From Candidatus Bathyarchaeota archaeon (GTDB lineage: Archaea > Thermoproteota > Bathyarchaeia > Bathyarchaeales > Bathycorpusculaceae), in the NCBI GenBank assembly GCA_963770935.1, contig CAVYRJ010000008.1, positions 160,001 to 224,000 on the forward strand: a DNA stretch of 64,000 nucleotides, read 5' to 3'. Below, in pieces: positions 1,108-45,448 of the stretch; position 1 is the stretch's first letter; each line of letters opens with the position of its first letter. The notes under the pieces were generated by a model, which was not told the DNA's origin, ran no database searches, and was given only the letters and a program-made list of their open reading frames with translations. The position numbers and the translations under genes are program-made.

Positions 1108-4100
1108 TTATTTGTATACGTTCAATGAAAATAACTCAGTTGTTTGCGAATATTCTTTGGCATAGTAAGACAAATATACTGTGGTCTTATCAACAAAAAG
1201 ATAAGAAGGAATACTAAAATCATTTCGACCGCTAACTAACGGTTTAATGTACGTTATTGTACCATTTTCACTAGTTGCAATCATATTAATTTTTGAGTTG
1301 TTATGGATATTGATAGAAATAGTAAAGCTGACGTCTGCTTTTGGAGTAACAATCTCTGGAAGAGTATTTTTTATCCCAATCAGTCTTCCCTCTAATTTGA
1401 AGTCATCCAGATAATAGGTAAGAGACTTTTGTGCGGGTAAATTGCCCAACAATACTTCAATTTTAGTAATTTGTTTCCAAGAAGGTGTACCCATCTTCGC
1501 CAGTGCACCAAGTTCAAAAGTTATTTCTTTCCAACCAGTAAAACTATCAATTATATTAGCGTAGTAGTAGTCTGTCCACGAATTTGTATGAAAAATCACA
1601 GGGATGACCATTGATGTATTTTCACCGTAGAAGAACAACTTAATGGACTCCCACTCGCTGAAATCTTGAAATTCACTAAAGGAATGCCAAAATGAAAGGC
1701 TTTGATTTCTAAATATATCGATTCTTAATGAGTCTTTACCATTAACGAAAACAGAATTATCATTTGTAAAATTGATGTCTCGTTTATCATTTAAACTCGA
1801 CCAGAAGTTGAGTTGATTTTCATCAGTTATACTCTTATTGAGTTCCCCAGAAGGTTGGACGTACGTTGAAATACTATTTTGGATTACCGTTGCGTTGGTT
1901 ATTGTTGCCCATGAGCTCTTGAAGTTGGAGGAGAATGCTACCGAGTTTTCTACTTCCGTTCTATCCAACAATTTAAACAATACCATTTTTTCGAAAACTT
2001 TTGCAATTACGAAGTTCGGTTCATAGTTTATCACTGAGAATAGAGAAAACTTATCGCTTGCTGATTTAAAATAATCGTATGCTGAATGCGACTGCCTAGG
2101 AATCAAGAAATAACGGATATTTGATTCTGTCAGCTTTTGTATTATTTCCGTAGAATTACTGGACGTTAGAATAGGCAAAATGGAGGAAACATCCTGAGGT
2201 TTAGTAAACTCCAATATTGTGCGATTAGCGAACAAAATGAGTTCATAACCGTAAAAAGTTAGTGTAGTGTAATCATCGGTAATATTTGTTTTGTAATAAT
2301 CAGCAACACCTAGAATACCATTTTCGTAATTTATATCAGGAGATCTATTGCCAACAGGGTTAGCGATAATGTTACTGAAGAAGGGAGTAAATGGAATTAG
2401 AAGCAGCATAGAACAAATAACTGGCACAATTACAATCCTCGCTTTTCCCTTGATGTGTATACTTCTTTTTCTTATTTTTTCCAATAACGACGAATTAACG
2501 TCTAACAAAAAGAATATTGCAAAAAGAACAGCTCCAATAGCCAAGTCCATAAGACTGGCAATTCCAAATTGGTAAAAAGGACCTGATAGCGATGGAGCGT
2601 TGTTTATGTTCAATTTGACTAGATAAAAATAGAGTGTTAAAGATGTGATAAACAAGACAAATCTGACGCCATAATGTTTTCTATTGAGTAGGGTCATTAG
2701 CGAATATATTCCAAACCCCATTGCAATTGATAAAAATGGTGCGAAATAATATAGACGCCGAAACTCAGAGCCTAAGAAAGAACACTGAAAAGTCCATGCC
2801 CAAAATAGAACTAATCCTATAGAAAAGATTACGAATAAAACCAGAGCTAACGATAGTTTTAATCTCATTTTTTTATAAACAAAAAAAATCCCAACCGATA
2901 TTGGGATAATATATAGTCCAGAAAGCAACAAATTTGTAAATAAGTTATCAAATCTTATGTAATTTAAGTACACAGGGGTAACAGAATCAGTTACTGGGCT
3001 CAGCAAAGCTTTCGCAGTGTTAAGATTAAAATTACTCGGTATCCATTCAGAATTTATAGCGCCGAACTGAGTTATATTTCTGTAGAAAAAAATTAGGATA
3101 GGCAAAACTGGTAAACTAAAATAAACGATGAAGAAGAAATGGTTCTTGCCCTTATTGCCGCTTGTGCTTTTAGTATCAAAAAAATGAAGAACCAAGAAGA
3201 TAATAACCGTGAAAAAACAAACGAGAGTTTCCCGCACAATGATTTGATTGAATTCTAGACCACTCAACAAATCCCAAGCGAATAAAAACATGAAGGGTAA
3301 TGTCGAAATTAAGGAGCACAGAAGAATAACCCAGAAAGTCCTTGTTTTTTGTGCCAATAAAAGACATATAGAAAAGAGAAAGGGAACAATAAAAATTGCC
3401 ATCGAGCTAGTAAGAAGTGCTAAAGATGCACTCATTCCGGCAAGCAAGAAATATAATTTTCTTGAAGTCCGTCCTCCTTTAATCAAAAAGAGAAGAGCTG
3501 TAAGTATATAAAAGATAAAATAAATATCGCGATATAAATTGAAGGTCACAAAAACCCCCATAACTACAGGCAAAGAGGCGAAAATAATCGCCGAAATTAG
3601 CGCTATTTCTTTTTTTAAGAATAATTCAGTTGCTAAACTGAAAACCGTTATTGTTGTTAGCAAGAAAATTATTACCGGTAAGATTATCAGGGTTTCTGAT
3701 CCCGCTCCCCATATTATCCAGGCGAACATAAGTGAAATTGCAGGGTCAGAAGTCATGAAAAGATCGTTCACATGATAGGGATCAGTCTGCAATCCACCGG
3801 ACGTAATTATTGATTTACTAAGGGGCAAGTAAAGTTTTATCGGGTCGTACTCTGAAAATAATGTCGAACTATAAATAATACTAGTAATAATGAAGGTCAA
3901 TAGCGCTAACAAAAAGAACAATAGAAGTATGTTAGTTTTGCTGATTCTAATTGAAAATCTTGTTTTCTTTTTGAATTTTTTGATTATAAATATTAGAAAA
4001 CCAAAAAATACCAGAAATACGCTCACTATAGTAAAAATTTGGAAAGACGGAACTATGGCTGAAGAAAAAAGCGCAATTAAAGTCATAGATGCAATGAATA

Positions 4101-4233
4101 TGAAATTCCAGAAAATTGCTCCTGCAAGCACAAGGTCCCAAGTAGAATCAATAATATTATACTTTTTCAGTACAATAAATAACACGAACATCCCAGGAAG
4201 AAATAACAATATAGGAAATTCAAACCAATACAT
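1108..4233 (-). CDS. Multi-TM GT-C fold (ArnT/PMT-like) glycosyltransferase with C-terminal carbohydrate-binding-like domain
   Basis: 1041 aa with many TM helices, EYDP..YLP loop, then a soluble beta-rich C-terminus (DSFTGWKEITF, YYLDDFKL); lies in a glycosyltransferase cluster. Confidence 0.65.
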   Translation of the reverse strand: MYWFEFPILLFLPGMFVLFIVLKKYNIIDSTWDLVLAGAIFWNFIFIASMTLIALFSSAIVPSFQIFTIVSVFLVFFGFLIFIIKKFKKKTRFSIRISKTNILLLFFLLALLTFIITSIIYSSTLFSEYDPIKLYLPLSKSIITSGGLQTDPYHVNDLFMTSDPAISLMFAWIIWGAGSETLIILPVIIFLLTTITVFSLATELFLKKEIALISAIIFASLPVVMGVFVTFNLYRDIYFIFYILTALLFLIKGGRTSRKLYFLLAGMSASLALLTSSMAIFIVPFLFSICLLLAQKTRTFWVILLCSLISTLPFMFLFAWDLLSGLEFNQIIVRETLVCFFTVIIFLVLHFFDTKSTSGNKGKNHFFFIVYFSLPVLPILIFFYRNITQFGAINSEWIPSNFNLNTAKALLSPVTDSVTPVYLNYIRFDNLFTNLLLSGLYIIPISVGIFFVYKKMRLKLSLALVLFVIFSIGLVLFWAWTFQCSFLGSEFRRLYYFAPFLSIAMGFGIYSLMTLLNRKHYGVRFVLFITSLTLYFYLVKLNINNAPSLSGPFYQFGIASLMDLAIGAVLFAIFFLLDVNSSLLEKIRKRSIHIKGKARIVIVPVICSMLLLIPFTPFFSNIIANPVGNRSPDINYENGILGVADYYKTNITDDYTTLTFYGYELILFANRTILEFTKPQDVSSILPILTSSNSTEIIQKLTESNIRYFLIPRQSHSAYDYFKSASDKFSLFSVINYEPNFVIAKVFEKMVLFKLLDRTEVENSVAFSSNFKSSWATITNATVIQNSISTYVQPSGELNKSITDENQLNFWSSLNDKRDINFTNDNSVFVNGKDSLRIDIFRNQSLSFWHSFSEFQDFSEWESIKLFFYGENTSMVIPVIFHTNSWTDYYYANIIDSFTGWKEITFELGALAKMGTPSWKQITKIEVLLGNLPAQKSLTYYLDDFKLEGRLIGIKNTLPEIVTPKADVSFTISINIHNNSKINMIATSENGTITYIKPLVSGRNDFSIPSYLFVDKTTVYLSYYAKEYSQTTELFSLNVYK

Positions 4234-4266
4234 TGAGGTTAAGCTCTATGGGTGCTACTTACTGAT

Positions 4267-5310
4267 TTATGGACGGTTAACTTTCATAACCAAGCCATCA
4301 TGGATCGCGTTAAAGTAAATTTTAAGGAGATTTGTACTTCTACGAATGAAAAGCAGAGAACCGGTTGTTAAGATCAAGTCCTGAACAGAGAGTATTATAA
4401 AAAGAATATAGCCTAATTTAGATGAGAATTTTTTCATAAATAGGAATCGATTTCGTGTTAAAAAGAAGATTTTGAAACCATTTATTTTCTTGACCGATTG
4501 CCCATCTTTGTGCCATATTTTAGAACGTGCGCATGCACACACAATCCAGCCCTTTCGTTTAGCCCTTACGCACCAATCCGTTTCCTCGTAGTAACAAAAA
4601 TAATTAACGTCGAGCAACCCAATGTCGCGAATTAGCTTTGATCGGACTAAAAGACAACTCCCTGGAACCTCGTCAAATTGCAAATATTCGGTTGACTTTA
4701 GGTATTCGGCATTTTTTAAAATCTCTGTTTTTCCGGTTCGCCAGTTGATCTTTTCTCCAATCGCCATTATGCTATTTGATGAATAATTGTAATTGATAGC
4801 TCCAACTATACCAATGTTTTCATCAGTTTTCATAGTTTTTATAAGTTCAAATAAGAAAGTCTTCTCGACAACTACATCATTGTTTAAAATAAGCGCAAAC
4901 TCTACTTTTAGAACATTTAGAGCATATTTGATTGCGATATTGCTTCCTTGAGCAAATCCGTAGTTCTTTTTATTTTCGATTAAATACATTGTCCGACTAT
5001 TCGATTGTAACTTCATTTTAATTAACGCTGTACGAGAATCAGACAAGCAACCAAGCTCAATTAATTGTATTCGTTCGCTCTGTGCAAGCGAGTCGGATGA
5101 AAATATTAATTCATTTTTAGCCCACTCTTTTATCATACTAACGGATTCATCTTCTGAAGAATTATCCACTACAATAACATCAAAATTGGAATATACCCCT
5201 TTATAAATAGACTCTAGGCACTGTATAGTATCCTTCCAACCATTCCAGTTCAAAATTATGATAGCAATTTTTGGATGATCTATGCTTGGACTACCTGGCA
5301 ATCTGTTCAA
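4267..5310 (-). CDS. GT2 family glycosyltransferase
   Basis: IIILNWNG, VVDNSS, NYGFAQGSN, ILNND, YYEETDWC motifs. Confidence 0.9.
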   Translation of the reverse strand: MNRLPGSPSIDHPKIAIIILNWNGWKDTIQCLESIYKGVYSNFDVIVVDNSSEDESVSMIKEWAKNELIFSSDSLAQSERIQLIELGCLSDSRTALIKMKLQSNSRTMYLIENKKNYGFAQGSNIAIKYALNVLKVEFALILNNDVVVEKTFLFELIKTMKTDENIGIVGAINYNYSSNSIMAIGEKINWRTGKTEILKNAEYLKSTEYLQFDEVPGSCLLVRSKLIRDIGLLDVNYFCYYEETDWCVRAKRKGWIVCACARSKIWHKDGQSVKKINGFKIFFLTRNRFLFMKKFSSKLGYILFIILSVQDLILTTGSLLFIRRSTNLLKIYFNAIHDGLVMKVNRP

Positions 5311-6373
5311 TCTCTGGTATTAGATTAGCTATTATTTTGTTCCAGTCGAATTCTTGCAATGCCAATTCCCTGGCATTCCTACCCATTTCTGCCAATTCTT
5401 TTTTAGGCAAATTGCTCAATCTAATCATCCCTTCTCTTAAAGTGTCAGGTTGGTTGTCTCTAACAACTATACCACACTTGTATTTTCTAATTAGGTCTGC
5501 AGCGTCGCCTACATCGCTTGCCAATATAGGTTTACCCATGGCACAATACTCTGAAAACTTCGTGGGTGAAGCAATTTCAGTAGAAATATGCTTAGGTCTC
5601 GGAAGAACAAAAGCGTCGCATGCTGAGTAGTAATCAATAATGGCTGTAAAAGGTACCCTTCCAACGAAGTGAACGTTTTTTCTTTTAGCACGCCTGAGAT
5701 CCCACTACTAAATAAGCGATATCTTTCTGCTTAATACCTCTCAGCAGCTTTTATGGAATTTTCGACCCCTTGGTATTTAGCAAAATTGCCAATGTATCCA
5801 AATACAAAATTGCCAAATGACTGCCTCAGTTCAACTGTTTTTTGATTTGACTTGGTCCGAAAATACTCAAGATCAACTCCATTGGTTAACATAAATTAAT
5901 TTTTTACTCGGAAATTCCTTTTCCTTTGAGAAACTGCATCATCCTTCTCGAAACACAGATTATTCTATCGGAGCAATGAATGTTAAGATGAGATGGGATT
6001 TTGTTTCTACTGTAAGCTACTATAAAAGATAAGCCTCTGTCAGATCTAGATTGCATTAATTCCTCGCATGGTCCCCCATGCATATCAAAAATGAGAGGCT
6101 TGCTAGTTAAGGTTCCCAATAAGCGAAAAAAAAGTACCGCCATGACCATTGCCGTAAACAAGATCATATTTTTTTGCAAGTAAAGATTTTAGATGCCTAA
6201 AATGGACTGTTAAAATTTTGCCTGAAGAGTAATGCCATGGGTAGGATACTAAATCAACAGTATGCCCAGCTGATTCAAGATTATCCCGGATTGATAAAAT
6301 TCGCCTCCAATCAGCAGAGGAATTATCTTCAAGATAGTCAGCTCTTTTTGGCTACTACACTCAATATATTCAT
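5291..6373 (-). CDS. GT4 family glycosyltransferase, broken by several frameshifts
   Basis: Fragments 5904-6179 (IFDMHG, DRIICVS) and 5291-5539 (GKPILASDVG, FDWNKI); ATG at 6373 (MNILSVV). Confidence 0.7.
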
Positions 6374-35110: not shown

Positions 35111-37993
35111 TTATTCGATGTAGATTGCAGGTTGATAGGGCAGTGCCATCGCTGCACGGTTCTTGGGGTCAATGCGGTTATTATCGTCCTCGCTGAAAAC
35201 AGATACTTCTGCGTTGAAACGTTGCCTAAAAAAACCTGCTGTAGAAGCCAAAATCGACAGTTCGTCCATTGCTTTGATTTTTTGCATGTTGACTTTGCGT
35301 TCGCCAGAAACCTTTGTTAAAGATTTAATAATTCTTGGAACCATGCCTGCAATATTTTTCATATACGGCTTTAGATCTTTGTCCGCAGCGAAATCCTTCA
35401 TTAGCTCACTGATTTTTGTTTCGCCGGCAATTGTTTTTTCAAGGATTTTTAGGTAAACTTTCCATTTCGATGGTGCCGCAGTGTAGTAGCAGATGCGTTT
35501 TGGCGTTATCTTCGTAGCTTTTATGATGTTTGTTGTGTCGTTGATTATATCGGTGATTAGAGTTTCTTGTTCCTCAGCGGCAATATCAATCTTGCTTATG
35601 TCAAAGACTGGCCATTTTGCAACGCTTATGAATCCTTCTTCTCCAGTTTGGCTCCAAAGCTCCTCACAGAGAAAAGGCGCGAAAGGCGAAAGCATCTTTA
35701 ACCATACTTTCACCGCATCACTCAGAGCTTTGGCCTCTGTGTTGCCTTTCCGTTGAATATACCAGCGCAGATCATTCCAAGTCTCAAACAACGCAACCTG
35801 CAATGCAGTTCGGGTTTTAAGTTCATCTAAGTTTGCTGTGACTTCTTTTATTCGACATTGAAGCTTACTAGTAAGCCACCGTTCCAAGGCTGTGTTTTCT
35901 TGGTTTTTGGCAGAGGCAATTATGCCGCTTGCAAATCCAACTAAAGCTTCAAACTTGGTTTGGAGGTCACTTACGTTTTCAGCGCGCCAATCAGGATCAT
36001 CCATGCCCTCAGCACCCAACAACAAACCACATCTTGTTGCGTCGGCGCCATATTTTTCGACAGCTCCCTTCACGGTTATGAAATTGCCTTTGCTTTTGTG
36101 CATTCCTTGTCCTTCGATCATAAGCATGCCGTTAACGCCGATGGCTTTAGGCCAATGTTCTGGTGGAAAGAGCGCGGCATGATGGAAGATACAGAATGAG
36201 AGATGATTTGGTACGAGTTCTTTAGCGGAATTCCTCAAATCAAATGGGTACCAGTACAGGAATTCAGATCGCATTGCATTGAGCAAGGTAGCACTTAATC
36301 CAGTAGTGATTCCAAGTTCAGTTGCATCGCCTTTACCATAGAAAAGAAAATCGAAAACTTCAGGTGTCAACGCTTCAGCGTTAACGTTATTCTGTTTTAT
36401 GTGTTTGTTTACGGTATAGAATGCCATATAGACCGTTGAGTCACTTAATGTTTCGATTATCCAGCCTTTCCCCCAGGGCAGCGGGGTTCCAAAACCAGTT
36501 GTTCTTGCACAAGCCCACTCGCGAAGCCAATCTATAACTGTGTAGAAATTTTGCTTTGCTGAATTGGGATAAATTGTCATTTGAGCGACGACTTGTTTGG
36601 CTTTCTCCTTCCATTGTGGCTCTGAATAGTTTAGGAACCATTGATCAGAGAGGATTTTTACTAAACACTGCGTCATGCACCGGCAAACGACAGGTTCAGC
36701 TAAATCGTACATGGAATCTGCAGCGCCAAGTTTGCGGAAATCAGTTATCAATATGTCTTTGGCTTCGCGGACAGTTTTTCCTGCATATGGTCCGCAGTTT
36801 GCCTTCAGGATGCCACTATGGAATTCTTTTTTGTACAGTTCTTTTGTGGCTTGTTCACCTTTGGGGTCGTTTTGGTCTTTTATGCCCATTTTCTCGACTA
36901 TTTCAACTGCTGGAAACTCACCAAAGCCCTCGACTTTAATGATCGAAATTGGCTTAATTTGCAGTACTGCAGCTGGATCCATGTCGAACTGTGCAAGGAC
37001 TTCTGGTTTTTGCTGCAGATCGCGCAGTGCTAGCCAATCGTATGGTGCGTGGGCTGGAACGCTGTAAACAACGCCTGTGGCGGTTTTGGGGTCAACAAAC
37101 CAGCCGGGTAAAATTGGAAACTTTAGTTTTGTGATAGGATTCTCAAACCATTTGCCAATGAGTTCTTTGCCTTGGAAGTTGCGCTTTACTTCAACTTTTC
37201 TTTCCTGCTCTTTTAGCTTCTCTGATGCTTCTTGGCTAATTATCCAGTTTTCGCCATTAACGGTTGCTTCCACATAGGTAACGTCAGGGTTAATCCATAT
37301 GTTAGTTACACCATAGATTGTTTCAGGGCGGAAAGTTGCCGCGGGCAGAAACGTTTTTTCATCTAGCTTATACTTTATCAATGTATATTCTTCTGCGGTG
37401 ACGCCTTCGCCGCTTTGACGGTCATGGTCACCTGTGGGGCTCTTATCTTTGGGACACCAAACTACTGGGTGCGTACCACGTGTAACATAACCTTTTTCTT
37501 TAAGGTTCTTGTATTGCCACTCGATGAATTTTTGGTAAGTGGGCATCACTGTTGTGAATTCACGTCGCCAATCCACTGAGAAACCGATGCTTTTAGCGGC
37601 TAAGCGACCTTCGTTAGTGTAGTATTGAGCCATATAGATCGGGTCAACGAATTTCTTGAGTTCTTCTTCAGGCACCCCATCGACCTCTCTTAGGACTTTA
37701 ATATATGCTTCATCACCCCGAGCCACACGTTGGCTTGCTCCAAGCAGCGGTTGACCAGTCCAGTGCCAACCCCAAGGCCAAAGCACATTATAACCCTGCA
37801 TACGCTTAAACCGAGCATAAGCATCCACACGAGAAGCGGAGAAAGCATGCCCAACATGAAGTGGACCATTCATGTACGGATATGGAAAAGTCACCATCTT
37901 TTTCTGCCTGTTCGGATCAGGGTCAGCCTCGAAAACATGGGCGTTTTCCCATTTGGCTTGCCATTTCTGCTCGAATTGCTTGGTTTGGCTCAT
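35111..37993 (-). CDS. leuS: Leucyl-tRNA synthetase (archaeal type)
   Basis: FPYPYMNGPLHVGH, DHDRQSGEG, VPAHAPYD, ETLSDSTVY, GMHKSKGN. Confidence 0.95.
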   Translation of the reverse strand: MSQTKQFEQKWQAKWENAHVFEADPDPNRQKKMVTFPYPYMNGPLHVGHAFSASRVDAYARFKRMQGYNVLWPWGWHWTGQPLLGASQRVARGDEAYIKVLREVDGVPEEELKKFVDPIYMAQYYTNEGRLAAKSIGFSVDWRREFTTVMPTYQKFIEWQYKNLKEKGYVTRGTHPVVWCPKDKSPTGDHDRQSGEGVTAEEYTLIKYKLDEKTFLPAATFRPETIYGVTNIWINPDVTYVEATVNGENWIISQEASEKLKEQERKVEVKRNFQGKELIGKWFENPITKLKFPILPGWFVDPKTATGVVYSVPAHAPYDWLALRDLQQKPEVLAQFDMDPAAVLQIKPISIIKVEGFGEFPAVEIVEKMGIKDQNDPKGEQATKELYKKEFHSGILKANCGPYAGKTVREAKDILITDFRKLGAADSMYDLAEPVVCRCMTQCLVKILSDQWFLNYSEPQWKEKAKQVVAQMTIYPNSAKQNFYTVIDWLREWACARTTGFGTPLPWGKGWIIETLSDSTVYMAFYTVNKHIKQNNVNAEALTPEVFDFLFYGKGDATELGITTGLSATLLNAMRSEFLYWYPFDLRNSAKELVPNHLSFCIFHHAALFPPEHWPKAIGVNGMLMIEGQGMHKSKGNFITVKGAVEKYGADATRCGLLLGAEGMDDPDWRAENVSDLQTKFEALVGFASGIIASAKNQENTALERWLTSKLQCRIKEVTANLDELKTRTALQVALFETWNDLRWYIQRKGNTEAKALSDAVKVWLKMLSPFAPFLCEELWSQTGEEGFISVAKWPVFDISKIDIAAEEQETLITDIINDTTNIIKATKITPKRICYYTAAPSKWKVYLKILEKTIAGETKISELMKDFAADKDLKPYMKNIAGMVPRIIKSLTKVSGERKVNMQKIKAMDELSILASTAGFFRQRFNAEVSVFSEDDNNRIDPKNRAAMALPYQPAIYIE

Positions 37994-38100
37994 GAAACCT
38001 TCTGATTAAAGCTTTAGCTATTAAGAGTTTTTCTTGCGTGCATGGTCAAGTGACCTAAAAATACAAATACAAAGACAAACAAAAGGTGCATCGATCACAC

Positions 38101-39099
38101 ATGTCCACCGACGAGGAGTTAATGCAGGAAGTTCAGACCTTTCTAGTTGAGCGCTCAAAAAAGGCCATTTTCTTGGCGAGGGAAGCTATCTTTAAAGAAC
38201 AAATTAAGTACACGCCCCTCCTTGAAGCCCTCACTTATTTTATGCAGGAAGTATGGACAAATGCAGCTCCTCACCCAACTCTTTTGTCCTTAACCTGTGA
38301 AGCAGTCGGGGGAAACCCTGATGCAATAATTGAAATAAGTGCAGCAATGGTGCTGTTGACTGGTGCAGCAGATATCCACGATGACATTATCGACCAATCA
38401 ATAACAAAAGATTCTAAACCTACAGTTTACGGCAAATACGGCAAAGACATTGCAGTCATAGCAGGAGATGTATTGTGGTTCAAAGGCATAATGATGTTAA
38501 ACGAGGCGTGTGAATCGTTCCAAAAAAATAAAAGATATGAAATTCTTGAGATAGCAAAGCAATCCTTCTTTGATATTGGTAGTGCAGAAGCCAACGAAGC
38601 AAATCAAAGAAGAAACCTTGATCTGCAACCTCAGAAATCTCTAGAAATTATTAGAATGAAGGCTTCAGTTGCGGGGGCAGCGGCCAAGATTGGTGCTATT
38701 GTTGGAGGTGGAACCGAGGAAGAAGTTAAAAGCCTAGGCGACTTTGGAGATAACTTGGGATTTCTGATGACTATCCGTGACGAATTTGTAGATGTTTTTG
38801 AGGCAGATGAGTTGAAGAACAGGTTTACTAATGAGTGTTTGCCGCTTCCTATTTTGTACGCTTTCCAAAACATAGTCTTAAAAAGACAAATTTTGGATAT
38901 ACTTAAACAGGCAGACATTAAAGAATCTGATTCAGAAAAAATTGCGGAACTAGTCATTAACTCCCCTCAATTACATAAGCTTACAGGTATCATGAAATCA
39001 TCAATGAAAATAGCTACCGAGAGTTTAACAAATATGAAAAAGAACAAAAATATATTTAATCAATTATTGAAGTCTGCGCTACAAGATTTGCCTTCTTAA
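38101..39099 (+). CDS. Isoprenyl-diphosphate-synthase-fold protein with degenerate motifs (candidate ComQ-like peptide prenyltransferase 1)
   Basis: First Asp-rich motif HDDIID intact; no RRG after it; no N-terminal GKxxR; second motif reads IRDEFVD. The family is clear, the function is inferred. ATG at 38101 (GTG at 38086 is an alternative). Confidence 0.8.
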   Translation: MSTDEELMQEVQTFLVERSKKAIFLAREAIFKEQIKYTPLLEALTYFMQEVWTNAAPHPTLLSLTCEAVGGNPDAIIEISAAMVLLTGAADIHDDIIDQSITKDSKPTVYGKYGKDIAVIAGDVLWFKGIMMLNEACESFQKNKRYEILEIAKQSFFDIGSAEANEANQRRNLDLQPQKSLEIIRMKASVAGAAAKIGAIVGGGTEEEVKSLGDFGDNLGFLMTIRDEFVDVFEADELKNRFTNECLPLPILYAFQNIVLKRQILDILKQADIKESDSEKIAELVINSPQLHKLTGIMKSSMKIATESLTNMKKNKNIFNQLLKSALQDLPS

Positions 39100-39127
39100 A
39101 ATAAATAAAGAAAAAAAAGTTAAGAAT

Positions 39128-39169
39128 TTACCACCAGTACATTCTTACAGGTCTAATTGGTTTTTTCGT
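39128..39169 (-). CDS. Putative 13-aa precursor peptide (M/T)KKPIRPVRMYWW
   Basis: Minus strand reads CAGGAGGAAAGGAAT-ACG AAA AAA CCA ATT AGA CCT GTA AGA ATG TAC TGG TGG TAA: GGAGG 8 nt upstream, TATA-like TTTTAAAG near 39206-39213, T8 tract after the stop. The start codon is ACG rather than ATG. Confidence 0.6.
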   Translation of the reverse strand, partial: TKKPIRPVRMYWW

Positions 39170-39340
39170 ATTCCTTTCCTCCTGTATTGTTGTTGAACGT
39201 ATAAACTTTAAAAGGTTTGCGGTAACTAGCCTCTATGTCAAGACATTTATCAATATTAGCAATCTTGTTTATTACTACTCAAAGCTTATCTTAACCGAAA
39301 TCTCAAATACTTTCTAACTGAACTCGCACGATAGAATTTA

Positions 39341-40666
39341 GTGTTAATCATGGGTAAAACTGGAAAACTCACAATGGATTTGCGCCTAACTCTAGGAAGT
39401 GCCTTTTTAATCGTAAATGCGCTCGTTTGGTATAGTGTTGCAACTAATATTTTGCCATCTATAATAATGAAAGACTCACAAAGTCTATTGTTATGGAGTT
39501 TTCATTTTGTTGCACTAATTATTTCAATTTTTATCGGTATCCTGTTGACTAAAAAAATTGGCACCCGATTCTTGCTTTTGATATGGACGAGTATTGGAAT
39601 TTTTTCTCCTCTAACTTTGTTTGCTATCGATAGTGAAGGTATTCCGCCCTTAGCTATGGTACTTTTCGGTGTATCTCTTGGGTTGGGTATACCGAGTTGC
39701 ATGGCTTACTTTTCTAGATCTACTCAGGCTAACAATCGGGGAAAATTCGCCGGTTTGATAATGCTATTAATTGGCATATTTAGTGTTTTACTGATTGTAT
39801 TAAGTGCAAATAAAATAGAGCCAACAGCCATTATTTTGATGATCTGGCGAACATTTGGGCTGCTATTTTTTCTTGTCCCAAATATAAAGCAACCTATAAT
39901 ACCTGATAAGCACTCAGTATCATTTTCTTTTGTTCTGAAACAAAGGTCCTTCATCTTATACTTGATTCCATGGCTGATGTTTTCTTTAGTTGGTTATCTA
40001 AGTGTGCCTGTGCAGGAAAGCGTTTTAGCGCAACAAGAAATTAATATTCTCAGGCTTGCCGAAAGTATTATTGGAAGTGTTTTTTCCGTAATTACTGGAT
40101 TGCTGATAGGTGTTGTGGGCAGGAAACGTATTGCAATTATTGCATTTGTTTTGGTTGGGATCGAGTTTGCGATTTTAGGAATGTATCCAGACCAAATGGC
40201 AGGATGGATGATCTATACAGTACTTAACGGGGCAGCATGGGGAACGTTCTATGTTCTGTTTGTAATGTCAATTTGGGGAGATTTGAGCCAAAATACTTCG
40301 ATAGAAAAGTACTATGCCCTTGGAATCATTCCGTTCTTTATATCCAAGTATTTGTCGCTAGTGCTAGGAGAAAATGTAGCTGCTGCAGTTTCTGTAAACA
40401 CTTTATTTTCATTCACTGCGTTTTTCCTTTTTCTAGCTGTTTTGCCCTTGGTTTATGCGCCTGAGACTTTGCCTGAAAAAGTCATGAAGGATAGGGATCT
40501 TAAAAGTTACATCGAGAACGCAAAAAAGAAAGCCCAAAAAGATGCTGATAAAGCAGCTAATAACAAAGAGAAAAAATTGAAAAAAGTGTCCGAGGAGAAA
40601 ACTCAAGATGCCAAACCTGATAAGGCCTATGAAGAAGCAAAAAGACTTGCAGAAAAATACTACTAA
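39341..40666 (+). CDS. MFS-like 12-TM protein 1 with charged C-terminal tail
   Basis: About 12 TM helices, NRGKFAG, GRKRIA, APETLPEK, tail ending YEEAKRLAEKYY. Confidence 0.8.
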   Translation: MLIMGKTGKLTMDLRLTLGSAFLIVNALVWYSVATNILPSIIMKDSQSLLLWSFHFVALIISIFIGILLTKKIGTRFLLLIWTSIGIFSPLTLFAIDSEGIPPLAMVLFGVSLGLGIPSCMAYFSRSTQANNRGKFAGLIMLLIGIFSVLLIVLSANKIEPTAIILMIWRTFGLLFFLVPNIKQPIIPDKHSVSFSFVLKQRSFILYLIPWLMFSLVGYLSVPVQESVLAQQEINILRLAESIIGSVFSVITGLLIGVVGRKRIAIIAFVLVGIEFAILGMYPDQMAGWMIYTVLNGAAWGTFYVLFVMSIWGDLSQNTSIEKYYALGIIPFFISKYLSLVLGENVAAAVSVNTLFSFTAFFLFLAVLPLVYAPETLPEKVMKDRDLKSYIENAKKKAQKDADKAANNKEKKLKKVSEEKTQDAKPDKAYEEAKRLAEKYY

Positions 40667-40870
40667 AACGTGGATGATGATTTCACGGAGATTTGTTGGG
40701 GCAAAATAGAATTGAACATGTACCTGCGGCTGTTTGGATTTAATCAATAATCTTTCTTCTTAATGATGAATCCCCAGCTAAAGCTAAATAATCAAGTATT
40801 TTTGTTGTATTGCTGTTCTACTGTTGTTTTGTTGGATAACTATCTCAAAACCGAATGTTTTGGTGTGTAC

Positions 40871-40915
40871 TTATATATTACGAGTCACGACTTGTTTCAT
40901 AAGGGTAAGAGGTGA
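40871..40915 (+). promoter_or_regulatory. TATA box and Shine-Dalgarno of the peptide 2 gene
   Basis: TTATATA at 40871-40877; GAGGTGA at 40909-40915, 5 nt before ATG 40921. Confidence 0.6.
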
Positions 40916-40920
40916 AATAC

Positions 40921-40974
40921 ATGAAACAAAAACAAGCAATCCGAGCTAAACCCATAAATTGGGGTGGATGGTAA
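40921..40974 (+). CDS. Putative 17-aa precursor peptide MKQKQAIRAKPINWGGW
   Basis: ATG...TGG GGT GGA TGG TAA with a strong archaeal SD and TATA box; directly upstream of prenyltransferase 2; resembles peptide 1. Confidence 0.75.
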   Translation: MKQKQAIRAKPINWGGW

Positions 40975-41078
40975 AAAAATCCAGTGCTGAAAAGAAACTT
41001 TCTCACACCAAATTTTGATTTTGAATCTTAATTTTAAAATCTTAACTTACAAATAGTGAAGGTTCTGATTTTACCTGT

Positions 41079-42086
41079 ATGCCAACTAGCTCCCTTACCC
41101 AGAATGCGTTATGCATAATTCAAGGTAAGGGTCATTCTGCGATATCTCAAGCTTGCCAAAAAATATTCCAAAAACAATATGATAGAGGAATAATGCGTGA
41201 AGCATTACACTATTATGCGAAAATGGTTCTTCCAAATGTTCTGCCGATTTTTCCAGCTCTAGGTTACTTATCTAGCAAAGCCGTGGGCATGGTCCCCGAA
41301 AACTACAACTCGGTAGCAAGGGCTATGGTGCTTATAACATCCTCAGGAGATATCCACGATGACATCGTTGACAATTCAAGGAAAAAGTTTGGACGAAAAA
41401 CGGTTTTTGGCAAATTCGGGAAAGATATTGCTATTTTGGCAGGCGATGTATTGCTTATTCAGGGAACAGCAGACCTTCAAAGCGAATGCTACAACCTGTC
41501 AAGCAGGCACAGAAAGGCCATAGTGGATTTGGTTGCTGCCTCGATGTTCGAAATCGTGACAGCTGAAGCACTAGAGATTTCCTTGTGTGATAAAGTTAAT
41601 GCGTCTCCAGAGGAGTATTTTGAGGTCATCAGAATGAAAGGTAGTGTTGGAGAGCTTCATTGCAAAATCGGTGCAATAATCGGTGGCGGAAGTCAAGAAG
41701 CGATCGATGACTTAGGACATTATGGCAGGGTAATCGGGATCTTGTCGACTCTGAAAGAGGAATTTGTTGATATGACAATGTTGGAAGAGTTTAAGCACCG
41801 AATCAAGTACGAATTACCGCCATATCCCATGCTTTGTGCCATGAAGAATAAAGCTCTGAAAAAAAAAATTGTTGGCATCACCGAGGGGCCCAAGTTTTTA
41901 GAGAATGATTTGCAGGCAATTGAGGAAATGGTACTAGGTTCGATAGAAGTAAAAAGGCTCATAGCCGAATTTAGGGACTTAGGCAGAAAAGAATTGACTA
42001 CAAACTTGTTGTTAAAAGAAAATAAAAGAGCAAGTGAGTTGTCGTTTATACTTGAGGCTTTGACAGTTGAATTGTCGCTTGTTTAG
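41079..42086 (+). CDS. Isoprenyl-diphosphate-synthase-fold protein with degenerate motifs (candidate ComQ-like peptide prenyltransferase 2)
   Basis: DIHDDIVD, TVFGKFGKDIAILAGD, IRMKGSV, second motif LKEEFVD; paralog of 38101-39099. Confidence 0.8.
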   Translation: MPTSSLTQNALCIIQGKGHSAISQACQKIFQKQYDRGIMREALHYYAKMVLPNVLPIFPALGYLSSKAVGMVPENYNSVARAMVLITSSGDIHDDIVDNSRKKFGRKTVFGKFGKDIAILAGDVLLIQGTADLQSECYNLSSRHRKAIVDLVAASMFEIVTAEALEISLCDKVNASPEEYFEVIRMKGSVGELHCKIGAIIGGGSQEAIDDLGHYGRVIGILSTLKEEFVDMTMLEEFKHRIKYELPPYPMLCAMKNKALKKKIVGITEGPKFLENDLQAIEEMVLGSIEVKRLIAEFRDLGRKELTTNLLLKENKRASELSFILEALTVELSLV

Positions 42087-42165
42087 CTATTTATCTTGAA
42101 TATGGATTCAATCACTGATGTATTATTTCTTAATGTTTAATAATACTTACACTTATCGTTATCCT

Positions 42166-43536
42166 GTGCACCCAAAACGCTAAGAATAATCGGTAAAAAA
42201 ATATCGTCAATCTCAAAAGAAACGTTAGTAAGCACTTTTTTAGTAGCGAACGCTTTTGTTTGGTATCTTTGCGGATTCGGGTATTTGCAAGACATAACAA
42301 GTACGAATTTTAGCGGTAATTCACTACTATTAATGGTTAGCGGCAATTTCGTCAGCTTGGTTTTATCTGCCTTTGCTTCTTCCCTTTTAACAAGCAAATT
42401 CAAGCATAGATTAAATTTTCTCAAATATTGGAGTATTGCAGGTGCATCACTTTCAATCATTTTCGCTATCATAAACCTGCAAGAGCTTACAAATATAATA
42501 GCAATTGCAATCATAATTGGTTCGTACTTCGGTATAGGAATGCCCGTTTGCATGGGCTACTACGCAAATTCAACTAAGCCTCAAAACCGAGCAAAACTAA
42601 GTGGAATCATAATACTTTTTATAGGAATAGGTTATCCAGCTATCTCTATAATTGGAAACAATGCACCGCTCTTTTTAGCCGCCACTTTGGCGGTATGGCG
42701 AATCTCGAGTTTATTTCTTATTCGATATATTAAGCCCGCTGAGCAACAAGAAGAGTCAAAACAGAGGGTTACTTACCGGTCAATAATTACAAACAAGAGT
42801 TTTGTTCTCTATGCTCTCCCATGGCTAATGTTTTCTCTCATAAACGACCTGACAATGCAGTTGAATACTAGCTGACTTTAGTAGCAGTACATTTCCCCAG
42901 GCTTTTGGAAATAACTTTCTGCTTATAGAAATGGTCTTAGCTGGGGCTTCAGCAATTATTTGTGGGCTTTTAGCTGATAGGAAAGGTCGAAAACGATTGG
43001 CATTGATCGGCTTTGTACTTTTAGGCGTTGGGTATGCTTCTTTAGGGATTTTTACCGGCAACTACCTTGCAGCCTGGTTTTATGTATGTGTTGACGGTAT
43101 CGCGTGGGGTGCTTTTTCAATGTTGTTTTTAGTAACTCTCTGGGGGGATATTGCTCAGGGAAAAAGCGCTGAGAAATATTATGTTCTTGGAGTCCTTCCA
43201 TATTTGTTTTCAAACCTAGCTCGCGTTTTAGCTGGAACTTACATATCAGCTAATATGATAGAGGGAACGGCTTTCTCGTTTGCCAGCTTCTTTCTATTCA
43301 TTGCAATACTGCCTATAGCATTTGCTCCAGAGACCTTGTCTGAAAAAATAATAAAGAAACTAGACCTCAATAGCTATGTCAACCAAGCATTGGAGAAAGC
43401 AAAGAAAAAGAATGCAAAAAATGTGGAGCCAGGTCAAAGAGTTGTATCACAGAATGAAATGACAAGCAATGATGAAGCCGATGATACGTCAAAAGAGTAC
43501 GAAGAAGCAAAGAAGTTGGCGGAAAAATACTATTAA
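42166..43536 (+). CDS. MFS-like 12-TM protein 2 (frameshift near 42872; start uncertain)
   Basis: FLVANAFVWY upstream of ORF 42285 matches FLIVNALVWY of paralog 1; NRAKLSG, DRKGRKRLA, APETLSEK, ends YEEAKKLAEKYY. Confidence 0.75.
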
Positions 43537-43561
43537 GTCGGACGTTTGTTGATATGGTTTC

Positions 43562-44693
43562 ATGTTCTTTCACGTGATACTTACCAGTGACTGCAATTTG
43601 CAGTGCAAGTACTGTTTTGGCGAGAGCCTTGATGACTTTGACGAAGAATTCGGCGACGATATAGAAGTCGACTACGATTTGCCACGCAACCTCAGCTATG
43701 ATTTAGAGCCTCTGAACAAGTTCTGCCGACAAGACCCTAATTGTGTTTTGACCTTCTATGGTGGAGAACCCCTGCTGCAGATGGATAAACTTAGGCAAAT
43801 TATGAATAAAGTGACCCCTAAACATTATATGATGCAAACAAACGGTTTACTTCTTGACAAACTTGAACCAAAATATGTTAACCGTTTCCACACTATCCTT
43901 GTCTCGATTGATGGGCAAGAAGACCTGACGGATGCTTATCGAGGAGCAGGAACTTACCGGAAAGTCATCGAGAACCTAAAATTAATCAAGAAAAACGGAT
44001 TTAAGGGAGAATTAATTGCTCGCATGACCATAATGGAGCAAACCGACATAGAAAAACAAGTCAAATATCTCTTGAACAACCCGGATTTTTCGTTTACCTC
44101 GATTCATTGGCAACTTAACGCTGGTTTCTGGGGCAATGACTATCAAAGGCGCAACTTTGAGGAGTGGACCAAAACCAGCTACATTCCAGGGGTTGAAAGG
44201 CTGGTGCATTTTTGGGTTGACCAAATCCAAGATAAGGGCACTGTGCTTAAACTATACCCAATTTTGGGCATAGCAAACTCGCTTTTGCATGAAGAGAAAA
44301 AATGCCTGATGCGTTGCGGAGGCGGCTGGATAAACTACGCTATCCAAACTGACGGCTACATTATTCCTTGCCCAACCATGTGGGGGATGAAGGAATACTA
44401 TCTTGGGCATATAAAAGATGCCGACCCTCTAAAACTTGAGACGAATTTTCGTAGACGAGAAACCTTGTGTGGACTGCAAAAATCTGGATATTTGCGGGGG
44501 AAGATGCCTATACACTAATATAACCAAAAGATGGAGCGATGATGCTTACAATAAAGTTTGCAACACGGTGGAACAATTAATCAAAGCAGTAGAATGCGAA
44601 GTCCCACGCATCCGAAGGTTGATCAGTAAGGGAAAAGTTGGGATAGATGACTTTGATTATGTAAAATATAATGGTGCTGAAATCATACCTTAG
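43562..44693 (+). CDS. Radical SAM/SPASM enzyme (resembles the TIGR04084/AF0577 family), frameshift near 44440
   Basis: CNLQCKYC, FYGGEP, QTNG, SIDG; SPASM cysteines CGGG...DGYIIPCP then CVDCKNLDICGGRC in the next frame. Confidence 0.85.
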
Positions 44694-44854
44694 AGTTGTT
44701 TGTATACAACATTTTTTTTCTCTTTCCCATTGAATTGTTTATTCGATGTTTTGTCTGATTTCTGCCCGATGGATTTCTTTAGTGTCAATCTGAATGGAAT
44801 TGACGGGCTGGTCAAAATTTATTATGAGTCCTTTGGAATTGGTATTCGAATTCT

Positions 44855-45448
44855 TTATTTTGAAAGCAGGAAAAGTCCGACTTCACCGAAAAGGTTGGGC
44901 AAAACCGAAACCTCCTTGTCCTTAGAGATGAAAACCGCTTTTTCGATACATATCCCACTTTTTTTGCAATATTCTTTGAAGTCAGCGATGCTTAGAAAGT
45001 GTAAGTTAGGAGTATCATACCACTCATAAGGCAGAGATGGGGTAACTGGGACTTTTCCGCGGAAGAAAATCTGGAAGCGATCAGTGATATAGCAAAAATT
45101 TGGGAAACCAACGATTACTTTTTTGCCGACACGCAAGGCCTCTTTTATCGCAAAATCAGGTTTCTTGACTTGTTGTAATGTTTGGTTTAGGATAACGTAG
45201 TCTACGCTTTTGTCAGCGTATTCGGTTAATCCAGTGTCGATGTCTTGCTGGAACACGCTTAAGCCTGCTGCTACGCAGTTGTGGATGGCTTGTTCGCTGA
45301 GTTCCACGCCTTGTGCATGCACTTGCTTGTTGCGGATCAGCAAATTGAGAAGTTCGCCGTCGCCGCATCCCAAATCCAAAACGGATGCTCCGCTGCTAAT
45401 CCAGCTTGAAATGACTTTGTGCTCAATTACATGGGTTTGCTTTGTCAT
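44855..45448 (-). CDS. metW: Methionine biosynthesis protein MetW
   Basis: [31 protein letters not shown]; adjacent to metX. Confidence 0.92.

Follow-up and report, generated by a model that had tools for sequence, protein, structure and literature searches.

The stretch of DNA analysed here, referred to as the window, comprises 64,000 nucleotides (nt), positions 160001-224000 of contig C8, from the genome of a Candidatus Bathyarchaeota archaeon that amounts to 1.98 Mb in 18 contigs. Flanked by a leucyl-tRNA synthetase (LeuRS) gene and a block of minus-strand genes, it harbours a module whose plus strand carries, in order, PT1, MFS1, PT2, MFS2 and a radical SAM/SPASM (rSAM) gene (Table 1). 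PT1 and PT2 encode divergent enzymes with the trans-isoprenyl diphosphate synthase fold (hereafter trans-IDS fold), while MFS1 and MFS2 encode membrane proteins resembling the major facilitator superfamily (MFS), and two micro-open reading frames (micro-ORFs) are located after PT1 and before PT2, respectively. On comparative sequence evidence the micro-ORFs are a conserved, unannotated gene family, and the locus is read here, with middling confidence, as a conserved Bathyarchaeia module resembling the pathways of peptides that are made by ribosomes and modified after translation (RiPPs), in which the enzyme would prenylate the aromatic tail of the peptide encoded by the micro-ORF.

Table 1. 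Features of the module and its flanks, with positions counted from the first nucleotide of the window
Feature	Position	Strand	Description
LeuRS gene	35111-37993	-	flank of the module
PT1	38101-39099	+	divergent trans-IDS-fold enzyme, 332 aa; PF00348 87.5 bits (cut-off 27)
Micro-ORF 1	39128-39169	-	13 codons, TKKPIRPVRMYWW, convergent with PT1, first codon ACG
Promoter and ribosome-binding site of micro-ORF 1	39178-39222	-	BRE/TATA-like box 39206-39222, GGAGG 39178-39182
MFS1	39350-40666	+	MFS-like membrane protein, charged C-terminal tail
TATA-like box and AGGTGA	40871-40879 and 40910-40915	+	precede micro-ORF 2
Micro-ORF 2	40921-40974	+	17 codons, MKQKQAIRAKPINWGGW, ATG start, same strand as PT2, upstream
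PT2	41079-42086	+	PT1 paralog, 335 aa; PF00348 70.8 bits (cut-off 27)
MFS2	42144-43536 (start approximate)	+	MFS1 paralog, broken in this assembly
Radical SAM/SPASM gene	43562-44693	+	family TIGR04084; +1 frameshift at about 44442
Gene block	from 44855	-	flank of the module

Both micro-ORFs are preceded by expression signals of their own. The AGGTGA of micro-ORF 2, whose peptide terminates in GGW, lies five bases 5' of the ATG, and micro-ORF 1 has the Shine-Dalgarno (SD) site GGAGG eight bases upstream and a TTTTAAAG box about 41 bases upstream. The sole canonical start in the frame of micro-ORF 1 is an ATG four codons ahead of the stop. The coordinates that an earlier note on this DNA had given for the two micro-ORFs are exact, although the ACG start of micro-ORF 1 had been overlooked there. 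A further copy of either peptide type was not found in the window's own genome.

Conservation of the micro-ORFs and their linkage to the enzyme

Homologs of PT1 are present in 27/41 related genomes at an E-value of 1e-20 or better. From a species-representative collection, tblastn confirmed 245 of 260 pattern-matched stretches, the best 80 of which were kept as loci L033-L112. Short ORFs were then sought in 78 of the 80 (two enzyme genes run off their contigs) on the strand opposite the enzyme, from 60 nt before to 200 nt after the enzyme stop. A core motif (a basic residue, [PV], an aliphatic residue, R/G, one to eight residues, W, zero to three residues and a stop) was found in 53/78 loci against 0.36 expected, and a strict motif, [KR]-P-[ILVM]-R...W, in 34/78 against 0.036 expected. 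The expectations are the rates in the window's own genome; the motifs were written post hoc and the loci are related, so that the ratios are descriptive and stand for no formal probability. A loose filter for a basic tail and a late W is matched 1.3 times per kb anywhere in the loci, indicating that place and strand matter. Before this comparison, the earlier note had singled out Trp-terminal short ORFs at homologous loci as a point on which its proposal hung, and short, basic, conserved ORFs whose Trp is the last residue or adjoins it were indeed found there.

Counted over 107 enzyme genes, an automatic call, with a few spurious cases, placed a micro-ORF beside 84, where it is either convergent downstream or lies upstream on the enzyme's own strand. 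Of the 23 automatic misses, about 12 have a peptide that could be recognised by eye. The micro-ORFs are unannotated and gene callers overlook the family as a whole; three of the peptides (20-23 residues; from L007, L067 and L084) matched no Pfam or NCBIfam family.

The three closest genomes have an orthologous 13-codon ORF in the same spacer, strand and frame as micro-ORF 1, with the same SD site and ACG. A MAFFT alignment of 17 loci revealed a conserved ACCGCAAA-TTTTAAAG box, corresponding to a B recognition element (BRE) and TATA element, as well as a conserved SD site, a conserved start column and a conserved stretch around the likely transcript start. Within the reading frame, Arg codons alternate between AGA, AGG, CGA and CGC and Pro codons between CCA, CCT and CCG, Ile, Leu and Val replace one another, and the TGG codon is invariant, while a T-rich run follows 3' of the stop.

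The family was also approached in the reciprocal direction, in that a degenerate DNA pattern encoding K-P-x-R-P-x-R...W was run against 121 order-level and 101 genus-level genomes; the genus-level search was needed because the order-level draw is poor in the relevant subclass and is uninformative alone. The pattern occurred at 11 distinct places, nine of which are stop-terminated micro-ORFs, all nine being located between enzyme and MFS genes. The remaining two are not micro-ORFs and have neither an enzyme nor an MFS gene nearby. The reversed control pattern gave 0 matches in the same 121 and 101 genomes. The idea that the micro-ORFs are chance ORFs in AT-rich spacers could draw on their very small size, on the frequency of matches to the loose filter and on the lack of a canonical start in micro-ORF 1, but it is refuted by the comparative data and is vanishingly improbable: the motif is enriched about 150-fold at one fixed place and strand, the substitutions are of the coding type, promoter and SD site are conserved, and the reciprocal search finds micro-ORFs only at enzyme/MFS loci.

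In the clade of nine enzymes that includes PT1, the start column of micro-ORF 1 reads ATG in L033, L034 and L037, and ACG in the window, L035, L036, L038, L039 and L040. The two states are interleaved on the enzyme tree. Since the ORF, the SD site, the frame and the peptide motif are kept in ACG and ATG relatives, we infer that ACG serves as a weak near-cognate start codon in these archaea. An upstream GTG was considered as the start in L035 and was rejected, being too close to the TATA box.

The peptides that start with Met are 9-24 residues long (median 16) and have a median net charge of +5. Among 82 unique tails from the automatic calls, a W is present within the last four residues in 71; the final W occupies the C-terminal position in 20 tails and the penultimate one in 44, and GW occurs near the end in 15. 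A conserved Arg is positioned 0-8 residues ahead of a Trp. A Trp at or next to the end, much as described in the earlier note, is usual, but it is absent in some orthologs and hence not universal.

With respect to the enzyme, the commonest arrangement is that of PT1, with the micro-ORF convergent just downstream. The arrangement of PT2, with the micro-ORF upstream on the same strand, was found in the window, L015, L021, L023, L027 and L032. A third arrangement is seen in L013, L067, L070, L097, L105 and L111, where the micro-ORF, of about 20 codons and with WW at its end, directly follows a gene for a secreted trypsin-family protein (PF00089) that is divergent from the enzyme, the MFS gene being next; it is conceivable that a dedicated protease of the trypsin family trims the basic N-terminal part of the micropeptide. 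Two micro-ORFs per enzyme occur in L015 and L027, where one is located on each side, and in L072, where a tandem pair has offsets of +25 and +283 after the enzyme. Elsewhere, in L007/L030 (genome G030), L066 and genome G151, two enzyme paralogs follow each other head to tail, separated by no more than about 100 nt, and only the second has a convergent micro-ORF; such paralogs possibly form a heterodimer.

On an enzyme tree, a quick maximum-likelihood tree with support from the Shimodaira-Hasegawa-like approximate likelihood ratio test (SH-aLRT) only, the peptide classes track the enzyme clades. PT1 falls in a starred clade of 9 rows, and PT2 in a starred clade of 13 rows together with type-2 peptides. 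Because the two enzymes fall in separate clades, the two cassettes of the window are, as far as this tree resolves them, old paralogs from different clades and not a recent tandem duplication. PT1 and PT2 are 34-37% identical, and the homologous MFS1 and MFS2 34-42%. The two-cassette order is also present in genome G012 (L035).

Enzyme hits at an E-value of 1e-40 or better were obtained in 26/151 class-level genomes, mostly of the window's order, and the distribution is patchy; the threshold is our own choice, and weaker hits (E-values of 1e-21 to 1e-27) mix true members with probable canonical synthases. The relatives in named records are almost all metagenome-assembled genomes (MAGs) of Bathyarchaeia, and a protein-cluster search returned only Bathyarchaeota polyprenyl-synthetase clusters. 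The same module was encountered on contigs labelled Baldrarchaeota, Nanoarchaeia, Caldiserica and Anaerolineales (L056, L072, L089 and L102), nested in Bathyarchaeia enzyme clades, and these four contigs are probably mis-binned rather than transfers. In L071 (Bathyarchaeota archaeon BA2) the match to the enzyme, at 3593-5489, is broken up into 3593-4018, 4001-4177 and 4500-5489. Beside a full gene there could thus be an additional partial copy or one that is disrupted; the tail of the micro-ORF has no W.

Active site of the synthase-like enzyme

Neither PT1 nor PT2 reaches an NCBIfam equivalog cut-off, the best equivalog for PT1 being IdsA with 104.5 bits against a cut-off of 468. The genome contains one further PF00348 gene, on contig C14 (L003), which scores 214.1 bits with an E-value of 1.4e-63, compared with 88.1 bits for PT1 and 71.2 bits for PT2 in the genome-wide comparison. 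Because of this far better match, and because a neighbouring gene, read by eye, resembles an isopentenyl diphosphate (IPP) isomerase, the C14 gene is taken to be the housekeeping geranylgeranyl diphosphate (GGPP) synthase. PT1 matches it with an E-value of 1.1e-10 and 23% identity. The AlphaFold2 model of PT1, with a predicted local distance difference test (pLDDT) score of 92.9, adopts an all-helical synthase fold, and its top PDB match in Foldseek is the GGPP synthase 1wy0 with a template-modelling (TM) score of 0.81; long-chain synthases were matched as well. As modelled, the fold does not discriminate the function of the enzyme, whereas the motifs do.

The motifs were surveyed in 28 members of the enzyme family aligned with the genome's own GGPP synthase. 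The first of the aspartate-rich motifs (FARM), D-D-x-x-D, is present in 28/28, with D94, D95 and D98 invariant. The K and R of region I (GGKRxR) are changed to a gap, P or V in 28/28; of the RRG motif only the first R is kept basic, as K in 28/28, and the second R is lost; the Thr of the KT motif is deleted in 28/28, and region VII has a deletion of six residues, likewise in 28/28. The residue just before the second motif is R in 15 and K in 7 of the 28. Such a motif state keeps the site for Mg and the allylic diphosphate and removes the IPP site. Compared with canonical archaeal GGPP synthases (1wy0 and the genome's own copy), the family is thus alike in PF00348, fold and FARM, but lacks the basic residues of regions I and VII and the Thr of the KT motif, and it scores far below the NCBIfam equivalog cut-offs.

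Since the FARM is kept while the IPP-binding residues are lost, the alignment points to an enzyme that uses a prenyl donor with an acceptor other than IPP, and the invariance of the FARM argues for catalysis by the enzyme itself. By its IPP-site residues and its equivalog score the enzyme would not be counted as a chain-elongating trans-isoprenyl diphosphate synthase. An enzyme of the prenyltransferase type had been suggested for the locus before, and the motif pattern (FARM invariant, region I K/R absent, region VII deleted) is as expected of one that no longer uses IPP.

It is also worth considering that the micro-ORF is a regulatory element, i.e. an arrest or Trp-sensing peptide or an antisense transcript, that tunes the enzyme and MFS genes, while the enzyme makes or remodels an isoprenoid, the MFS protein transports it and the rSAM protein modifies it. 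In most loci the micro-ORF is convergent on the enzyme and its stop is located between 31 nt inside and 53 nt beyond the enzyme stop, so that the transcripts would overlap, and the micro-ORF and the MFS gene are divergently transcribed. With tandem Trp codons and cores rich in Pro and Arg, the micro-ORFs are reminiscent of leader and arrest peptides, and the enzyme has retained an acidic second aspartate-rich motif (SARM). Furthermore, archaeal rSAM enzymes acting on isoprenoid lipids are described (PMC11186832). However, the amino-acid sequence of the peptide is kept through synonymous changes, and the peptide stays by the enzyme despite changes of strand and position, which a cis element would not tolerate. 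The loss of the IPP-binding residues in every member surveyed also speaks against a regulatory element beside an isoprenoid-making enzyme, and no unusual RNA structure is predicted: the transcript of micro-ORF 1 folds no better than shuffled sequences (z -0.76), and positions 37900-44900 have no Rfam match at an E-value of up to 1. A regulatory role of this kind is therefore considered unlikely. A trp attenuator was rejected as a separate candidate, since most micro-ORFs are on the strand opposite the enzyme.

Operon partners and frame breaks in the window

The partners of the enzyme were counted by tblastn over the 80 loci. A homolog of MFS1 is present in 77/80, the other three loci being too short, and a PadR gene in 43/80, for the most part as one of two divergent genes immediately upstream of the enzyme; LeuRS was found in 20/80 and trypsin in 5/80. 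The N-terminal part of the rSAM protein was matched in 47/80 loci and its C-terminal part in 42/80, and the gene lies directly 3' of the MFS gene, with which it shares the strand, and is read in a single frame. Loci without the rSAM gene keep PadR, enzyme, peptide and MFS, followed by unrelated genes. As the rSAM-less loci retain all three, the core of the module is enzyme, peptide and MFS, and the rSAM gene is a frequent operon member. The grouping of enzyme, peptide and MFS into one module, as proposed in the earlier note, was correct in this respect; the rSAM/SPASM gene that was described there as following the cassettes is present, and is more than a neighbour given its conservation in the operon. 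No histidine kinase or response regulator was seen among the neighbours in the window and the examined loci, which bears out the stated absence of a pair resembling ComP/ComA.

In families other than that of the window, the module usually has the PadR pair as its neighbour. The window's genome contains a divergent PadR pair on contig C15 (18444-19277), away from the enzyme genes, with 48% and 34% identity to the flanking pair of those families. In two members of the genus, a membrane acyltransferase gene (PF01757; E-value 1.9e-39 in L008) is located directly upstream of the enzyme in place of LeuRS/PadR, at 2631-3728 in L008 and at 2510-3586 in L025.

MFS1 scores 30.7 bits against PF07690, below the cut-off of 33.4, and its ortholog in L007 scores 47.3 bits, above it. 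The regular presence of the MFS gene, together with the high charge and the aromatic tail of the peptides, would also suit an unmodified, cationic, Trp/Arg/Pro-rich peptide that acts on membranes, for example as an antimicrobial, with the MFS protein as exporter or immunity factor and the enzyme linked for some other reason. Such a composition resembles known Trp/Arg-rich antimicrobial peptides. An unmodified peptide nevertheless leaves unexplained both the pairing with a catalytically equipped enzyme and the match between peptide class and enzyme clade, and we regard it as very unlikely.

The N-terminal part of the rSAM/SPASM protein of the window matches TIGR04084 with 239.1 bits (cut-off 225), and the C-terminal part with an E-value of 1.2e-16. 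Its next-best NCBIfam matches are peptide maturases (PapB, 1.7e-26). The CxxxCxxC motif begins at residue 11, from which it follows that the protein has no N-terminal recognition domain. In this it differs from the rSAM/SPASM peptide maturases PqqE, StrB of the streptide pathway and WprB, which it resembles in being encoded in an operon near a tiny precursor containing Arg/Lys and Trp; the TIGR04084 gene is, in addition, missing from many loci that have the peptide, and the family is uncharacterised. Papers relevant to TIGR04084 or AF0577 were not found in the literature searched.

These features raise the alternative that the peptide is a substrate of the rSAM/SPASM protein only, which could introduce, for example, a carbon-carbon cross-link between Arg/Lys and Trp, while the synthase-like protein would be a scaffold or lipid supplier. 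The position of the rSAM gene after the MFS gene on the same strand in more than half of the loci, its kinship with peptide maturases and the conserved Arg ahead of the Trp are all in line with such a role, and WprB is described as an rSAM enzyme that links Trp to Arg or Lys (PMC11851443). By contrast, at least 20 loci whose examined DNA contains the enzyme and MFS genes but lacks the rSAM gene still have a micro-ORF, the link between peptide and enzyme holds in all arrangements, and the invariant FARM argues for catalysis by the enzyme, so that modification by the rSAM protein alone appears rather unlikely.

In the window, two of the partner genes are broken. MFS2 is in two pieces, 42285-42875 and 42931-43536, with a +1 frameshift at about 42874, and the final 85 codons of the rSAM gene are in a different frame, while the rSAM/SPASM gene of the relatives is intact and in one frame. 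A search for sequencing runs gave two soil DNA runs, with small shares of 0.08 and 0.05, and no RNA run. The contigs obtained from the two are those of relatives, not of this strain; the relatives' contigs from run X1 are one base shorter at 42874 and at 44442/44443, exactly where the frames of MFS2 and the rSAM gene break. Comparable frame breaks occur in other loci of one MAG series (L034, L036, L062 and L064). Given these similar breaks and the bases missing in the relatives' contigs, the frame breaks of MFS2 and the rSAM gene are likely an assembly error. MFS2 also has no ATG, GTG or TTG at the position that matches the ATG of its closest ortholog (L023), and considering this missing start as well, cassette 2 may be decaying. 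In the start region of MFS2 (42144-42290) the codons CTA AGA ATA ATC are homologous to the L023 start, with an ACG one codon upstream and no obvious SD site. Thus, all parts that had been listed for the locus are present, but MFS2 and the rSAM gene are broken in this assembly.

Relation to known prenyltransferases and the proposed pathway

According to PMC13290415, peptide prenylation by synthase-fold enzymes is known so far only from bacteria (ComQ, StheQ, PalQ and ChrPC), all characterised trans-IDS-like peptide prenyltransferases target a Trp at or near the C-terminus, and a Gln just before the SARM, which positions the indole, is common to the known trans-IDS-like Trp prenyltransferases. 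ComQ (IPR033965) of Bacillus and StheQ of Chloroflexi prenylate a Trp of an adjacent peptide, ComX and StheX, respectively, that is second from the C-terminus or a few residues away from it (PMC10853753; preprint 10.64898/2026.08.29.745113). The archaeal module is like these systems in that the gene of a trans-IDS-fold enzyme whose FARM is intact adjoins that of a short peptide carrying a Trp near the C-terminus. In ComQ, however, the FARM is described as present and the SARM as absent (PMC10853753), and StheQ binds one Mg at the FARM and none at an N-D-x-x-D pseudo-SARM (preprint 10.64898/2026.08.29.745113), whereas the archaeal enzyme has an acidic second motif and lacks the upstream Gln, and its best sequence and fold matches are archaeal GGPP synthases, not ComQ-like proteins. 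Furthermore, the archaeal precursors are leaderless and comprise 9-24 residues, compared with at least 69 residues for StheX, and the partners are MFS, rSAM/SPASM and PadR rather than a ComP/ComA pair. Because of the acidic second motif, the missing Gln, the kinship with GGPP synthases, the leaderless precursors and the lack of a two-component partner, the archaeal module is read, from its gene content and motifs, as an independently derived analogue of ComQ-type systems and not as a member of the family. The earlier note had cast the locus as an archaeal ComQ/ComX-like system; membership in the ComQ family does not hold, and a quorum-sensing role finds no support. Its remark that it knew of no such system described in archaea agrees with the literature searched, of limited coverage, in which none was found.

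PalQ of Paenibacillus alvei needs a strictly C-terminal Trp and prefers GW or GGW, as described in PMC13290415, and its preferred GGW end is the end of micro-ORF 2. By contrast, PalQ belongs to a separate cluster within the terpene-synthase-like superfamily, and PalX is a long NHLP-type precursor beside a histidine kinase (PMC10853753). The indole prenyltransferase Ord1 (PDB 9v4g-9v4j) shares the fold, ranking 5th in Foldseek with the PT1 model (E-value 5.1e-11, TM 0.71/0.77, 23% identity), and scores 7.2e-28 against the archaeal enzyme in a sequence profile search. Unlike the proposed enzyme, Ord1 acts on free tryptophan and relies on the Gln before the SARM (PMC13290415), and the GGPP synthase 1wy0 fits the archaeal enzyme better than Ord1 does.

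Several observations weigh against prenylation of the peptide by the enzyme. The second motif is acidic, [DE][DE]xxD, its first position being D in 15 and E in 9, its second E in 19 and D in 9, and its last D in 26 of the 28 members surveyed. The column of the FQ-Gln of GGPP synthases, at -3 from the SARM, contains Q in 0/28, the six most frequent residues being T (13), I (6), A (3), V (3), G (1) and S (1); since the Gln is absent throughout, the chemistry of the enzyme could differ from that of the known Trp prenyltransferases. On the side of the peptide, about 11 of the 107 enzyme genes have no micro-ORF that could be found, two of these running off the contig. A W is missing from the last four residues in 11/82 automatic tails, some of which are spurious calls, and clear W-less orthologs with Tyr, Phe or Ile in the tail exist in L031, L071, L083, L086, L088 and L104, which leaves two readings: in some peptides the acceptor is a residue other than Trp, or the conserved P-[IVM]-R core is of greater importance. 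The precursors are leaderless which, to our knowledge, is unlike almost all RiPPs. In the window itself, micro-ORF 1 starts with ACG, and MFS2 and the rSAM gene are frameshifted. A complex of the enzyme with a 34-residue stop-to-stop reading that contains micro-ORF 1, and is not the true peptide, was predicted from our own alignment with a score of 0.44, compared with 0.02 for the best of three controls; at least 90% of contacts are common to the runs, and the pLDDT of the partner is at least 48. The mark applied to such predictions is reached by 58/80 solved complexes and 2/110 mismatched pairs, and scores of 0.60 or under comprise 7/80 solved complexes and both mismatches, so that the prediction lends the pairing of enzyme and peptide weak support.

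The arrangement of the genes, with the precursor beside its putative tailoring enzymes, fits the general RiPP pathway, and MFS, rSAM/SPASM and PadR are operon partners typical of peptide pathways. In the prenylation pathway favoured here, a very short, strongly basic precursor with a core of the [KR]-P-[ILVM]-R type and an aromatic tail that is short and usually has Trp as its last or next-to-last residue would be translated from its own promoter and SD site. The enzyme would then take a prenyl diphosphate as donor and the aromatic tail of the peptide, most likely its Trp, as acceptor, in the manner of bacterial ComQ, StheQ and PalQ. In many lineages the TIGR04084 rSAM/SPASM protein probably adds a second modification, e.g. 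a cross-link, and the MFS protein would export or flip the resulting cationic lipopeptide, while in other families the PadR pair may regulate the module. The window contains two old paralogous sets of enzyme, peptide and MFS, which lie ahead of one rSAM gene.

More tentatively, and with somewhat less confidence than we place in prenylation as such, the peptides may constitute a new class of archaeal lipopeptides: leaderless, cationic micropeptides of about 10-20 residues whose C-terminal Trp would be prenylated by an enzyme descended from the GGPP synthase lineage of archaea and of an origin separate from that of ComQ, with an rSAM/SPASM cross-link in many lineages and export by the MFS protein. 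Their precursor genes would be among the smallest known, with an ACG start in several species.

Bathyarchaeia are abundant, uncultured archaea of sediment and soil whose cell biology and interactions are almost unknown. If the proposed pathway is true, peptides of 13-17 residues would provide a first handle on an archaeal lipopeptide, be it a signal, an antimicrobial or a membrane component, and the peptide prenyltransferases would gain a new branch, with potential application in the lipidation of peptides. The locus also illustrates that an entire family of micro-ORFs escapes gene callers, and it points to ACG as a possible start codon in these archaea.

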